Origin: Macrostomum lignano
Taxonomy: Eukaryota
Assembly (NCBI GenBank): GCA_002269645.1
Contig: NIVC01002574.1
Span: 62,001-126,000 of the forward strand
Direction: 5' to 3'
Length of the DNA stretch: 64,000 nt
Position 1 is the stretch's first letter. The number at the start of each line of letters is the position of its first letter. This document shows, in pieces, positions 25,158 through 34,100 of the stretch. The notes beneath the pieces were generated by a model. It was not told where the DNA came from. It saw only the letters and a list, made by a program, of their open reading frames with translations, and did not search any database. A program made the translations under genes and the position numbers.

Positions 25158-28100
25158 ATGCCTCAAAGACAGCAAAGTCAGGTGTTTCTAGCTGTCGTTG
25201 TTATCATCGGCCTTCGGCTAATCCAATCGGCCGCGGGCACTACCAGCTCCGGGACTCTGTGCTACAAGGACAACAACCCCAGCAACCCGGACCCCTACAA
25301 CAAATACACGTGCGAGGACAGCGCCAAGCCAAACTGCTGCCAGGAAGGCGACCTCAGCACCTGCTGCGACTATGACCCGACTCAGCGGACCATGTAAGCG
25401 GCTCTGGGAGATCGAGTTTGCGGCTGGATCTTACACCAGATTCTCCTCTGACACCAGATTCTCCCTGACACCCGATTCTCCCTGACATCCGATTTCCCCT
25501 GACATCCGATTTCCCCTGACACTCGATTCGCCCTGACACCCGATTCTCCCTGACACCCGATTCTCCCTGACATCCGATTTCCCCTGACATCCGATTTCCC
25601 CTGACACTCGATTCGCCCTGACACCCGATTCTCCCTGACACCCGATTCTCCCTGACACCCGATTCTCCCTGACACCCGATTCTCCCTGACACCAGATTCT
25701 CCTCTGACACCAGATTCTCCTCTGACACCCGATTCTCCCTGACACCCGATTCTCCCTGACATCCGATTTCCCCTGACATCCGATTTCCCCTGACACTCGA
25801 TTCGCCCTGACACCCGATTTCCCCTGACACTCGATTCGCCCTGACACCCAATTCTCCCTGACACCCGATTCTCCCTGACACCAGATTCTCCTCTGACACC
25901 AGATTCTCCTCTGACACCCGATTCTCCCTGACACCCGATTCTCCCTGACATCCGATTTCCCCTGACATCCGATTTCCCCTGACACTCGATTCGCCCTGAC
26001 ACCCGATTTCCCCTGACACTCGATTCGCCCTGACACCCAATTCTCCCTGACACCCGATTCTCCCTGACACCCGATTCTCCCTGACACCCGATTCTCCCTG
26101 ACACCCGATTCTCCCTGACACCAGATTCTTTTCTGACACACGATTCTCCCTGACACCCGATTCTCCCTGACACCCAATTCTCCCTGACACCAGATTCTTT
26201 TCTGACACACGATTCTCCCTGACACCCGATTCTCCCTGACACTCGATTCTCCCTGACACTCGATTCTCCCTGACACCCGATTCTCCCTGACACCCGATTC
26301 TCCCTGACACCCAATTCCCCTGACACCCAATTCCCCTGACACCCAATTCCCCTGACACCCAATTCCCCTGACACCCAATTCCCCTGACACCCTGACAGGC
26401 CTGACAGTGCAGACTCCTTGCTTCGCAGTCGCCTGTCTGACAATTGGTCGCATTTAGCCTATCAATTAGCCCTCTGAGCACTCAAGACTCAACCTGTCCC
26501 ATGGTTCCCTCTCTCCATTTTCCGAGGCAGACTGTCAACTGACCGAAAAGGATTTTCTTACTCTCTGAGCCGGCAGGAACACAAATAACAAATAGCAAAG
26601 CAGCAAAAAGTAAAGCACTTGAATAAGCAGAAATGGAAGCTTTGCGTGCACCCCAGCTGTTCGTAGCAACTATACCGGTAGTCCGCCAGAGACCAACATT
26701 AAAACTAGAAAGTGGAACTCTCCCCTCTTTCAAATGCTTTTTCCTCTGGAGGAGAGTGGTCGTTGCGAAGAACTGTATGGAATGATAAGTCAAGTCTGGT
26801 TGCCGCAGTTCCGAGCCAGATAGAGAGGCTAAGCAGGATTCTAGGGGGGAGGGGGGGGTGAGGGGATGAGAAAAATGATCCCGATGGCACGCAGCTCTGG
26901 CTGATTTTGCTTATTTACGCTCGTAGTTACGCCAATTCCGCTCAGTTTTTTAGTTTATCGGCTCAGAAATCATGATCAGCGAGGCCTTTTCGCCGCATCT
27001 GATCTCCATGATTCTCAACATGCACTTCTCAGCTGTCAGCTCTCTTGGAATGTAGAGCTCACGGCCTATGGATGGGGAGTATAAAGAGGAGGGGGAATCT
27101 AGAGAGGAGGGGGACTCTAGAGAGGATGGGGAATCTAGAGAGGAGGGGGACTCTAGAGAGGATGGGGAATCTAGAGAGAATGGGTAATCGAATCTAGAGA
27201 GGATGGGGACTCTAGAGAGGATGGGGACTCTAGAGAGGAGGGGGACTCTAGAGAGGATGGGGACTCTAGAGAGGAGGGGGACTCTAGAGAGGAGGGGGAC
27301 TCTAGAGAGGATGGGGACTCTAGAGAGGAGGGGGACTCTAGAGAGGATGGGGACTCTAGAGAGGAGGGGGACTCTAGAGAGGATGGGGACTCTAGAGAGG
27401 AGGGGGACTCTAGAGAGGAGGGGGACTCTAGAGAGGAGGGGAATCTAGAAAGAATGGGTAATCGAATCTAGAGAGGATGGGTAATCTAATCTAGAGAGGA
27501 GGGGGACTCTAGAGAGGAGGGGGAATCCAGAGAGGATGGAGAATCTAGAGAGGAGGGGGACTCTAGAGAGGAGGGGGAATCTAGAGAGGATGGAGAATCT
27601 AGAGAGGAGGGGGAATCTAGAGAGAATTGGTAATCGAATCTAGAGAGGATGGGGAATCTAGAGAGAATGGGGAATCTAGAGAGAATGGGTAATCGAATCT
27701 AGAGAGGATGGGGAATCTAGAGAGAATTGGTAATCGAATCTAGAGAGGATGGGGAATCTAGAGAGAATTGGTAATTGTCAGATAGTTAGTTATGTGTATG
27801 GCTTGGCTAGGTCTGTCAGTTAGTTATTATTATTTGTTTATTTTTTAGATCTAGTGCACTTTTGCCACCCCAGTGTCTGGGGGGGTTTGGAGTTGGTTAT
27901 TTACTCTCTCTCTCTCTCTCTCTCTCTGTGTTGTTCAGTCACCCACCCCTAATCTCTGTCTGTGCTGAGTCAGTAAATCAATATAAATTGATACAACTAA
28001 CTATCTGACATCTCCCCCCTAAAGTTCGAAACATCCCCTAGCAAAGTTCGTTCGAAGTCAGAGTCAGTTCAAATTCAGGATCAAAGTTGCAGGCGTTCAG

Positions 28101-31100
28101 GTGGCTGCCTCCGACGCTGCGGATAGCGCCTCGCCGGACTGCTCGGCCGGTCAGCGGCGGCGGTGGCCGCGTCATCCTGCGGCGCGTCATTGCCGCCGTC
28201 GCCTTCGCTTTGCTCGGTGGGCAGCGAATGCGGTTCATCGGAGACAGCGGCCGGCGTCACCGGGTCGGCCTCTGGCAGCGAGCTCGTCAGCAGCTGGTCC
28301 GTGTGCCGCCGATGGAGAGCGCCGCCGACCTCAACGTCGCAGTTGCGGGATCCAGCGGACACGACGCTGCCCTCCGCCCAGCGAGTGCCGCCGCCAGCCC
28401 TAGCGTTGGAGCTGAAGTCGCGCAGTAGAACTCGGTCGCCGACTTGAAACTCGCGCGCATGCGGCTGCTGCTCGACCTGCCGCTCTTGGTGTTGCTGCAT
28501 GCTGCTCGTCAGCGATGGCATCAGCAGGTCCAGCCGACTGCGCAGTCTGTGGCCGATGAGCAGCTGGCTGGGAGCTTCGCCGGTGATCGAGTGCGGCGTG
28601 TTGCGGTAGGACAGCAGCATCTGCTGCAGTGCCGCCGAGTGCCCGCTCTTGAGCAGATGTCGCTTGAGCACCTGAACGAATCTCTCCGCTTGGCCGTTCG
28701 TTGCCGGATGGAACGGCGCCGAGAAAACATGCCGAATTCCGTTGCGCCTTGTGAACTCGCCGAACTCCGCGGAGGTGAACTGCGTGCCGTTGTCGGAGAC
28801 CAACACCCGGGAATGCCCAGTCTGGCGAAGACCTCGCGGAGTCGCTCGATGGTGGCAGCAGACGTAACGCTGTGCACCTGATGAACCTCCGGCCACTTGC
28901 TGAAGGCGTCCACGATGACCAGGTACGTGCGACCGTTAACGGGGCCGGCGAAGTCCAGGTGCAGCCTCGCCCAAGGTTCAGCAGGAAACGGCCACGGTTG
29001 CACCGGCGCCTTGGGCGGGTCGGCCTGGTTCAGCATGCAGGTCCGGCACGACTTGACGGTCAACGCAAGCTGCTCGTCCAGGCCGGGCCACCAGACGTAG
29101 CTGCGGGCTAGCGCTCGCATGCGGTTGATGCCGGGATGCGCCTGGTGCAGCTCGTCCAGCACGCCTTGTCGCAGAACCGCGGGCACCACGACGCGGGCGC
29201 CCCACAGCACGCAGCCTTGTTCAACGCTCAGCTCGTCCTGGCGCCTCGAGAAGTCGATGAGATCGGCGCCAGCCATTGGCGCGCCAGTCTGCAGACAGCG
29301 AAGCACCCGGCCGAGAATGGCATCCGAGCGAGTGCTGCGCGCGACCGCCTGAGCCGTTATGGCGGACCCGGTCTCCTCATCCAGTAGCAGGGCGTTGACG
29401 GCCGGCTCTTCCTCAAACTGCCTCGGCAATGGCAGCCGGGACAGAGAGTCGCAGTTGGCGTGCTTGCTGGTGGGCCGGAACTCCAGCGAGTAGTCGTAAC
29501 CGGCCAAACGGATCGCCCAGCGCTGCATGCGAGCCGCGGCGTGCTCTGGAATCGCCTTGTTTTCACCGAGAAGTCCTAGGAGCGGCTTGTGGTCGGTCAC
29601 GATGACGAACTTGCGGCCTTGGAGGAACTGATTGAAGCGCTGGAGGCCGAACATGATCGCTAGCGCCTCCTTGTCTAACTGCGAGTAGCCCTTTTGAGCC
29701 GTCGTCAGGCTGCGACTTGCGAAGGCAATGGCTCGGTCCTGGCCGTCCACTCGGTGCGTCAGCACCACGCCGAGACCATAGGGGCTGGCGTCGCACTCTA
29801 GCCGCAGCGGCAGCTTGGCGTCATAATGCATCAGCACCGGAGACTCGAGCAGAAAACGCTTGGACTTCTCGAAGGCTATCTGCTGAGGCTCCCCCCACGT
29901 CCAGCGCGTGTTCTTAGTCAGCAGCTGATTCAGGGGAGCGACAACCGTGGACAGATGAGGCAGAAATTTGCCGTAGTGCGTCAACATGCCCAAATAAGCT
30001 CGGAGTTGACTGCAGTCTGCGGGTGGCGGGGCGTCCTGCACCGCCTTCACCTTCTCTGTCAGCGGCCGCAGTCCGTTGCTGTCGATCCGGTGGCCCAGAT
30101 ACTCGACCGAATCGCGGAACAACTCGCACTTGTCTTTGTTCAGCCGTAGGCCCGCCTCCCGTAGGCGCTGAAGGACCTTGATAAGATTCTCGCGATGATG
30201 CTGCAGCGTCTTGCCCGTCACCAGGATGTCGTCCACAAAGACTTGCACAGACTCTAGGTCACCGAGCAGCGAGTCTAGCGTGCGCTGGAATACCGCACTG
30301 GCGCAGTTGATGCCGAACGGCATGCGGTTCAGCTGGTACAGGCCTCGCTGCGTGTTGATGGTCAAGAAGGGCTTGCTGTCCTCAGACAATGGCAGCTGCA
30401 GGAAGGCGTTTGACATGTCCAGCTTGGACCATTTGCAGCCGCCACCCAGCTTTGCAAATAAGTCCTCAATGCGCGGCAGTGGGTACAGCTCCGGCCTGGA
30501 CTCTGCGTTGTAGGTGAGCTTGTAGTCGCCGCAGATCCTCACCGAACCGTCCTTCTTGACAACAGGCACAATTGGCGCAGCCCAGTCGGAATGTTTGACT
30601 GGCGTGATGATGCCGTCAGTCTCCATCCGTCGAAGTTCCTGATCGACGCGCTCCCGGAGTGCATAGGGGACCGGTCTGGCCTTGAAAAAGCGCGGCTTCG
30701 CCTCAGTCGGCATGTGCAGTTTCACCTCGCCGTGCCGATAGGTGCCAAGGCCGCCTTGGAAGACCTCGGGGAACTGCGCGAGCAGATCAGCTGCTTGTCC
30801 GGTCACTGAGTTGACCTGACCAAGGATCGTCGGCCAGTCCAATCTCAGCTGCGTCAGCCAGTCGCGACCCAGTAGTGCGACATCGCCTTGCTCGACCACA
30901 AGCAGCGTCAACCGCCGATCTTGGCCATTATGCTGAACTGCGACCTCTGCCTGTCCGATGGGTCGAAAGCTCTCGCCCGTGTAGGTGCGCAGCACCGTGG
31001 ATGTCAGCGACAGACGGAGACCCGGCAGGACATCCTCTTGGAGACTCTTCGGGATGACGGTGAGGGCGGAGCCGGTATCCACCTCGAAGCGACATGGCTT

Positions 31101-34100
31101 GCCTTGGAGCAGCAGCTCGACCGCCAGACCCTTGCTCGATCCGCTCTGCCTAATGCTGAAGAGGGGCTCCTGCAGCTCAGCCGGCTCTGGGTCCAGCTTG
31201 TGCAGCTTTGAAGACCTGCACACCTTGCGGATGTGCCCGACTTTGCCGCAGTTATGGCACTTGGCCTCACGAAGCTTGCACTGCTGCCGACTGTGGGCGC
31301 CGCCGCAGCTTGCACACGCGCCTGAGGCAGCAGCTGACCGCATAGCGTTGGCTTGAGCTCCGGGCGGCTGCCGGGGAGCCTGCTTGTTGAATTTTTTGAG
31401 CTCTTTGGGCGCAGCGGGCTTCTTGTGGAGACGCAGGTGGGCGACTGCTTCAGCACGGTGCGCCATCTCCGACGACGATTTCTCCGCTGCCTCCAATGCG
31501 TCGACTCTGGCCACGAGCGTCTTGAAGTCGGGCTGTTCGATCTCCAGCAGCTTTGCACGGTGCACGTCACTGCGGAGACCGAAGACAAACTGGTCGCGCA
31601 GTCTCTCGTCCAGAGTGCTGATGCAGTGGGATCCGTCTGACCCGTCCAGAGTGAACTCAAATTTGCAATGCTCCGAGGCAGCCTTTAGGCCAGCAATAAA
31701 GTCCGCGAGACTCTCGCCGGGCTTCTGCACGCGCTGTTGAAAGCGGAATCTGGCGGATAACATTGACGTCTTGGGAGAGTAATGTGCCCTCAAGACAGCA
31801 GCTAAGTCTGAGTATGACTTGGAGGTCACCGTTTCCGGCAGGCACAGATTCCGAAGAACCTTGTAAGCGTCTTCTCCGATGGCGGTCACCAGCGTGGCGA
31901 CCTTCGCCTCGTCTCGGACTTCTTTACAGATGAAGTATTGTTCGAGCCTCTCTAGGTATACCTCAATGTCAGAGTTTGCAGAGAGTTCTGGAATTCTACC
32001 AGTTGTAGCCATTTTCTCGTCGCCAATGTGAAATTATGAGCCGAGTGATTGTAGTTAGAAGTAGAAAAGGAAGGACACGTGAAACTCTCCACGCGCGGTG
32101 TTGTGTTTATTTATATTGATTTACTGACTCAGCACAGACAGAAATTAGGGGTGGGTGACTGAACAACACAGAGAGAGAGAGAGAGAGAGAGAGTAAATAA
32201 CCAACTCCAAACCCCCCAGACACTGGGGTGGCAAAAGTGCACTAGATCTAAAAAATAAACAAATAATAATAACTAACTGAGAGACCTAGCCAAGCCATAC
32301 ACATAACTAACTATCTGACAGTAATCGAATCTAGAGAGGATGGGGAATCTAGAGAGAATTGGTAATCGAATCTAGAGAGGATGGGGAATCTAGAGAGGAG
32401 AGTGAATCTAGAGAGGAGGGGGAATCTAGAGAGGAGGGGAAATCTAGAGAGAATGGGGAATCTAGAGAGAAGGGGGAATCTAGAGAGGATGGGGAATCTA
32501 GAGAGGAGGGGGAATCTAGAGAGAATGGGGAATCTAGAGAGAAGGGGGAATCTAGAGAGGATGGGGAATCTAGAGAGAATGGGGAATCTAGAGAGGAGGG
32601 GGAATCTAGAGAGGATGGGGAATCTAGAGAGGAGAGTGAATCTAGAGAGGAGGGGGAATCTAGAGAGGATGGGGAATCTAGAGAGGATGGGGAATCTAGA
32701 GAGGATGGGGAATATAGAGAGGAGGGGGAATCTAGAGAGGATGGGGAATCTAGAGAGAATGAGGAATCTAGAGAGGAGGGGGAATCTAGAGAGGATGGAG
32801 AATCTAGAGAGGATCTTAGAGGATGGGGAGTCTAAAGAGGAGATTCCCCCTGACACCCGATTCCCCCTGACACCCAATTCTCCCTGACACCCGATTCTCC
32901 CTGACACTCGATTTCCCCTGACACCCGATTCTCCCTGACACTCGATTCCCCCTGACACCCGATTTCCTCTGACACCCGATTCCCCCTGACACTCGATTTT
33001 CCCTGACACCCGATTCTCCCTGACACCCGATTTTCCCTGACACCCGATTCTCCCTGACACCCGATTCCCCCTGACACCCGATTCCCCTGACACCCAATTC
33101 TCTCTGACACCCGATTCTCCCTGACACTCGATTTTCCCTGACACCCGATTCCCCCTGACACCCGATTCTCCCTGACACTCGATTCCCCCTGACACCCGAT
33201 TTCCCCTGACACTCGATTTTCCCTGACACCCGATTCTCCCTGAAACTCTGACACCCGACACCCGATTCTCCCTGACACTCGATTCCCCCTGACACCCGAT
33301 TCCCCTGACACCCAATTCTCCCTGACACTCGATTCCCCCTGACACTCGATTCCCCCTGACACCCAATTCCCCTTCTTGAAGAATGAGGGTCAGAGAGAGT
33401 GGGTGAGCAAGAGTAGGGGCGGAGGCTTCACACAGATTTTTACCTGCCACTTCAAATCGCAGATTTCACTTCGAGACCTGCCCCGCTAGTCAGTCGGGAA
33501 CAGAAAAAACTGACAGCCCTGACATTAAACAGACAAAAGCCATGGCAAATTTGCAATGATGCTATTTTATACAAAGGTCAAAGGGGAAGAGGTAAACAGT
33601 GGGGAGACAGGGTTGCCAAGAGCAGCAGGCGGAGATGCAGCAGAATGGCTGAGCTGTACAGACTCTCGCTGAGAAAAATCAAATAAATTTGAATAATTAA
33701 AAACAACAGCAGCGTCATCTGCATTCTCTTCTCACCTCATCCCGATTCCCCCAGCTCTGAGTCCACTCAAGCCCCGTCTGAGCATACGCAGGCTGTTGGG
33801 AGTGCTTATAAACTGGAGTCGAATAGAGAATTGATTTGATTATACGGTTCGCTCGGTAGCTGGGAGAGCAGTGTCAGCAGAGAAGCCAGGCCTATCCGGG
33901 ACCTCTTCGCCTTGTCGTGCCCCTGACTTAGAAATCAGCTTTAGTCTGAGATCGTCCTGGCAGCCGGGTCACCGGTTTTTTCCTTCTTAGAGACAGCTAA
34001 TCCGATTTTGGAGGGAGAGAATTTAATCTGCGGATTAGAGAGGAGAACAATTGGGTGTCAAAAATTGTGTTGCTTTTTAGCGTCATTTTCTAGAAATATG

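Follow-up and report, generated by a model that had tools for sequence, protein, structure and literature searches.

Does a Ty3/Gypsy retrotransposon whose ends are inverted rather than direct long terminal repeats (LTRs) represent a new mode of replication, or is it an accident of an ordinary one? This question is raised by an element on the minus strand at positions 27776-32320 (4,545 bp, its structure read from the assembly) of a 64,000-nucleotide stretch of the Macrostomum lignano genome, which we call the window (contig NIVC01002574.1, positions 62,001 to 126,000 of the forward strand; GenBank assembly GCA_002269645.1). An earlier note, made from the sequence alone, had offered two readings: either a family with a non-canonical replication cycle like that of DIRS elements, or a one-off aberrant cDNA that integrase inserted. 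Genome-wide scoring of copy orientation had been named beforehand as the test between them, and all 13 other 3′ ends of the family that were scored proved to be direct. We conclude that the window copy is most likely a real, rare and aberrant dead-end copy of an ordinary direct-LTR family and not a new replication system.

A singleton among direct-LTR copies

Read along the element strand, the copy consists of a 294-nt LTR, one spacer base, a primer-binding site (PBS), gag-pol, a polypurine tract (PPT), LTR nucleotides 1-16 and finally LTR nucleotides 221 to 1. The 5′ LTR (32027-32320, minus strand; 294 nt) is normal, as the earlier note had it, with TG...CA ends. The PBS lies 1 nt past it (32016-32025, minus strand), where 10 nt are complementary to tRNA-Ser(GCT) with its CCA; a tRNA-Ser(GCT) gene of the same genome specifies the matching 3′ end. 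At the other end, the PPT (28011-28020, minus strand) is as in sister copies and is directly followed by a stump of a normal 3′ LTR, nt 1-16 (27995-28010, minus strand). There is no R-U5 beyond this point, and LTR nt 17-294 are replaced by inverted nt 1-221 (27776-27997, plus strand), an arm that begins exactly at the LTR TG. If the U3/R/U5 borders are taken from motifs (a TATA box at LTR nt 206 and a poly(A) hexamer at nt 210), this arm would be mostly U3; its own TATA box (27982-27987) is oriented inward, into the element. The inverted termini first described over ~213 bp hold at the level of the assembly. Specifically, 27776-27988 matches the reverse complement of 32109-32320 apart from 2 substitutions and 1 indel, and a local alignment widens the arms to 222 nt at 97.3% identity (27776-27997 versus 32100-32320; blastn E 6e-104).

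The expected 5-bp target-site duplication (TSD), GTAAT, flanks both ends (27771-27775 and 32321-32325, plus strand). This 5-mer recurs within the 18-bp tandem array of the host that surrounds the insertion. Two sister loci, on contigs C197 and C606, have unique flanks that are 94-97% identical to and colinear with those of the window, and the element is absent from both (C197 is covered fully, and the 540 bases of C606 that are unseen are too few to hide it). Each sister locus has an uninterrupted target motif. Because both empty loci carry a single copy of the 5-mer, the TSD is a true duplication despite its recurrence in the array. Five base pairs is also the TSD length of the family, and such a duplication is present in 5 of 7 other two-LTR copies checked.

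A whole-element search of the genome, in which 40 of 305 candidates were scored, gave at least 96 matches, and a search with the LTR was scored for all of its candidates (39 of 39). Among the matches listed, a close copy with both of its ends is present at nine loci. The LTRs are direct at eight of them, and inverted ends occur only in the window copy. Thirteen of the 14 PPT junctions examined, which include duplicated loci and stand for about 11 insertions, continue into a normal direct LTR, and the exception is again the window copy. Opposite LTR orientations were found by the LTR search on one contig only, that of the window. Furthermore, a 27-nt pattern representing the junction has a single match in 764 Mb, even with two mismatches allowed. 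With direct sister copies and a junction that occurs only once, the data do not support a new replication system. The 16-nt LTR copy beside the PPT, which had been likened to the ICR (internal complementary region) found in DIRS elements, is an ordinary 3′ LTR stump, placed where the 3′ LTRs of the sisters begin. The census supports the second of the two original readings, in which integrase inserted an aberrant cDNA on a single occasion.

The internal region differs from its nearest sister by 0.42% (99.6% identity) and from five more of the eight aligned sisters by 0.52-0.83%, and two direct-LTR copies differ from the rest by 1.2-3.5%, more than the window copy does. By these divergences, the window copy belongs within a young direct-LTR family. 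Related families, at 70-80% identity, have direct repeats in all four cases where both ends are covered, and no inverted ends were seen among 11 self-compared loci, five of which have direct repeats and six of which have no terminal repeats in the compared stretch.

Several family copies are situated in tandem repeats. Two loci with identical flanks (L014 and L015, on contigs C1541 and C963) carry an internally deleted element with direct LTRs and no matching 5-bp TSD, probably a recombinant between two insertions that predates the duplication of the locus. Another locus (L050, ~1497-1782) contains a solo LTR with an apparent end at an inner CA, 2 nt before the usual one, and the next 5 bp repeat the left flank.

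Junction scars and the origin of the copy

A 3-nt microhomology is found at the junction between the stump and the inverted arm (27995-27997), shared by LTR nt 14-16 and the complement of nt 219-221, and an alternative 5-nt match (LTR nt 20-24) adjoins the same site. Five nucleotides from the junction, a 2-nt change (27989-27990) allows what was an imperfect palindrome to pair as a perfect 6-bp hairpin (27977-27992, plus strand; pair probabilities 0.84-0.97), and this change is present in no other LTR copy scored. In our analysis, this is the pattern of a quasi-palindrome, or snap-back, scar, as expected of template-switch correction. Corrections of this type have been described (PMC5453318). 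Intramolecular folding would be the simplest source of the scar, provided that sense U3 was the strand being extended.

The arms also bear on the number of templates involved. Both carry a T-G6/7 run state that occurs in no other LTR scored, and both carry (CT)12. Because the private G-run state and the same (CT)12 are found in both arms, a single parent U3 is indicated. Two parent templates for the arms were considered and are not supported, as the differences between the arms are private and one marker is shared. The (CT)n microsatellite is itself variable in the family, with 6 to 75 units across copies and often unequal numbers in the two LTRs of one element, and at one locus (L004) the whole segment is absent from both LTRs. 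A tandem unit at LTR nt 8-16 also varies: one unit is missing at four loci, and a fifth carries a duplication of the terminal 11 nt (the five being L037, also numbered L026, and L047, L050, L059 and L060). This variation suggests that nt 8-16, where the window junction falls, is a hot spot of polymerase slippage.

We favour, with a probability of roughly 0.63, an origin by an error of reverse transcription, in which plus-strand synthesis of U3 ended early, the product became linked to the beginning of the 3′ LTR, and integrase inserted the resulting U3-U3 cDNA. In retroviruses and LTR elements, plus-strand DNA primed at the PPT starts at LTR nt 1. We infer that extension of such a strand halted among the A-rich bases around nt 213-221, and that its 3′ end snapped back briefly and perfected the small hairpin. 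Three nucleotides of the strand could then have annealed to LTR nt 14-16 on a molecule of sense polarity, for which its own 5′ end, a second RNA or a stalled plus strand are all candidates. In this way, the cDNA would have acquired the U3 fragment, inverted, as its far end. The 5′ LTR would have been finished from normal plus-strand strong-stop DNA, made from a co-packaged RNA. With a U3 attachment site at both cDNA ends, integrase could join both in one step and produce the 5-bp TSD. Parts of this course have counterparts in HIV-1, where 26 of 88 proviruses were reported to have asymmetric LTRs, for which the authors invoke strong-stop DNA of a second RNA (PMC9278108), and where early termination of plus-strand synthesis is described as possible (PMC12657518).

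It is important to note that several observations weigh against this origin. The order of the steps is deduced from one junction, without an observed intermediate, and beyond the 3-nt microhomology nothing favours a switch to nt 14-16. When LTR nt 1-221 are folded as DNA, pairing of the 3′ end with nt 14-16 is not predicted, and a preformed stem between the arm end and these nucleotides was rejected on that ground. Microhomology combined with a snap-back insertion is also a mark of host end-joining. Moreover, leaving the hairpin aside, 3 substitutions distinguish one arm from the other, whereas the internal region has 4 private substitutions in 4,017 bases; the arm changes thus exceed the internal-region expectation (rough Poisson P ~0.01), and this excess fits error-prone repair as well. 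Finally, the available text of the two HIV-1 studies describes no U3-U3 inverted provirus (PMC9278108, PMC12657518).

Some of these points would be accommodated if two cDNAs had integrated in concert by their U3 ends and the host had joined the inner ends by microhomology-mediated end joining. Such an event would yield the correct TSD and two U3 ends, and both the 3-nt microhomology and the nearby snap-back change fit polymerase-theta-type joining as it is generally understood. We nonetheless consider it unlikely, given that the second molecule must lose ~4.3 kb and the first only 278 nt, and that the fall of both breakpoints within the LTR would be a matter of chance unless the second molecule was a short by-product. 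In the latter case, this explanation converges on the reverse-transcription model. No published report of bimolecular integration events was found in a search that left subscription and older retrovirology literature largely outside its reach. A different source of the single parent U3 and the surplus of arm changes, which would fit error-prone synthesis, would be a template switch-and-return within the 3′ LTR during replication of the inserted element (a four-point model). This is geometrically possible, as short switches are known to give inverted repeats with inverted spacers (PMC5453318), and the LTR ends do have a 3-nt inverted match. However, a clean LTR terminus is required by integrase and not by a template switch, and in a normal 3′ LTR no more than 2 of the 2,128 entry pairs that have at least 3 nt of microhomology hit the terminus, a figure that is softened by the selection of this finding for its clean ends. 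We judge an origin after insertion to be distinctly unlikely.

The remaining explanations fare worse. The single occurrence of the structure and its location in a tandem array would suit an assembly or chimeric-read artefact, and public sequencing runs give the junction no support: the best contain 0.82 of 39 sampled words of 27930-28330, under the 0.90 that normal copies could supply, and because only 36 of the 371 31-mers in this interval are private to the junction, such shares neither show nor exclude it. Even so, an artefact seems very unlikely, since a fold-back chimera would be symmetric whereas here nt 16 joins nt 221, and since two sister loci match the unique flanks in the same order, the TSD is exact, and changes private to the arm include the perfected hairpin. 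It is highly improbable that the window copy belongs to, or has founded, a family with a DIRS-like cycle that reproduces inverted ends. The clean integrase-site ends and the youth of the copy speak for such a cycle, yet the other 3′ ends are direct in 13 of 13 cases, the genome shows no second junction, the two frames scanned have no tyrosine recombinase domain, the 16-nt copy is the normal LTR start, and the integrase frame is broken. Least credible of all is the fusion, by a deletion, of two opposite insertions in the same tandem array, with the TSD as a coincidence of repeat phase. Although the target 5-mer recurs in the array and tandem repeats have received several copies of this family, the proposal requires two insertions from one parent (given the shared private marker) within ~2 kb of a 764-Mb genome and in the same repeat phase.

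Coding content, host locus and fate of the copy

The gene order gag, protease, reverse transcriptase (RT), RNase H and DDE integrase, as first proposed for this element, is borne out by Pfam, in which the domains recognized are protease, RT, RNase H, H2C2 and rve, arranged as in Gypsy elements. The main open reading frame (28521-32012, minus strand; 1163 aa) extends from gag to the N-terminal part of the integrase, and its best solved match is Ty3 Gag-Pol (E 5e-76, the best of 23 matched sequences). Near 28.8 kb it departs from the integrase frame, and the integrase core and C-terminus continue out of frame at 28081-28935 (minus strand). The rve match (E 4e-7) lies below the curated cut-off because this frameshift splits the domain. 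Neither the interruption of the integrase core nor the position of the insertion inside an 18-bp array with a recurring 5-mer was part of the earlier note. The frameshift column (near 28810-28830 in the window) is a gap in 3 of 9 aligned copies. The lesion might have been inherited, or the consensus might repeatedly be in error at a homopolymer.

The 18-bp array of the host spans 27085-32814 (plus strand; Tandem Repeats Finder) and is split by the insertion into segments at 27085-27775 and 32321-32814. The host locus is present in three copies at 94-97% identity, represented by 26400-27060 and 33380-34100 in the window and by contigs C197 and C606, and the family also has near-identical groups of insertions (L008/L009, L014/L015 and L010-L012). 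The triplication of the locus and these paired insertions point to a duplicated or polyploid genome or to separated haplotypes. A 17-bp tandem array flanks the region of the 18-bp array on both sides in the same orientation (25433-26392 and 32841-33372), and the window is rich in further minisatellites.

What could become of such a copy? Without a 3′ R, it cannot transmit its inverted structure by the normal cycle. First-strand transfer would be able to land only on a co-packaged normal RNA, and this would restore direct LTRs. The promoter of the inverted arm, which faces into the element, may drive antisense RNA across pol, a role also proposed for the inward-facing right repeat of DIRS-1 (PMC3950715). 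Whether the copy silences its family by making such RNA is a more speculative matter, and we regard this as possible with the odds clearly against it.

The window copy suggests that a Gypsy integrase accepts two U3 ends in vivo and, if our reading of its origin is correct, it preserves a mistake of plus-strand synthesis of a kind rarely encountered in integrated DNA. Should copies of this kind recur across genomes, their bias between U3 and U5 ends would provide a direct test of the route of formation. Annotation tools that seek direct LTR pairs would presumably miss inverted-end copies.

Comparison with known systems

By every test the family is assigned to Ty3/Gypsy on its sequence features, and the window copy, which fails only in lacking direct LTRs, is best classed as an aberrant derivative. 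It shares with Ty3/Gypsy the PR-RT-RH-IN (protease, RT, RNase H, integrase) order, an RT closest to that of Ty3 among solved structures, the TG...CA termini, a tRNA PBS and a PPT, and its 5-bp TSD lies inside the 4-6 bp expected of the group. Unlike the window copy, all eight sister loci that hold both ends (8 of 8) have two direct LTRs. No published description was found of a Gypsy element that had integrated with its LTRs inverted and a TSD around it, with subscription and older literature largely outside the search.

The HIV-1 proviruses that have asymmetric LTRs or derive from premature strand transfers are likewise integrated errors of reverse transcription, in which the 5′ LTR is intact and the 3′ LTR altered. 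They differ in that their alterations, in the available text, are deletions or tRNA insertions, with no inverted U3 serving as a second attachment site (PMC9278108, PMC12657518). DIRS-1, like the window copy, is an RT element between inverted repeats, but it encodes a tyrosine recombinase, has no known primer and shows the inverted structure family-wide (PMC7192593, PMC3950715). Its ICR of 88 bp brings both termini side by side and is essential for transposition (PMC7192593). In the window element, the corresponding place is taken only by the 16-nt stump at the normal position of a 3′ LTR, the two frames scanned contain no tyrosine recombinase Pfam family, and the inverted repeats are not family-wide.

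In layout, the copy resembles Ginger1 and Ginger2, in which a Gypsy-type integrase lies between terminal inverted repeats (TIRs) of 40-270 bp that start with TGTNR (PMC2836005). The 222-bp arms of the window copy start with TGTCA and fit both the motif and the length range. Ginger elements lack gag and RT, whereas the window copy keeps gag-pol, and they form families with mostly 4-bp TSDs, whereas the window copy is single and its integrase frame is broken (PMC2836005). Genome searches by LTR and by junction pattern revealed no further TIR-bounded copies with other TSDs. It is highly unlikely, in our estimation, that Gypsy reverse transcription recurrently gives rise to U3-U3 inverted-end integrants as a by-product and that the window copy is a fresh intermediate in the origin of Ginger, one that might be excised or recopied in trans and found an inverted-end lineage. 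If true, recurrent U3-U3 integrants would put an integrase gene between TIRs in one step. Bao and colleagues proposed that the Ginger1 TIRs derive from two oppositely oriented LTRs flanking an integrase, brought together by two separate insertions (PMC2836005). The window copy indicates that the TIR-flanked integrase layout proposed for the ancestor of Ginger1 can also be yielded by a single event.

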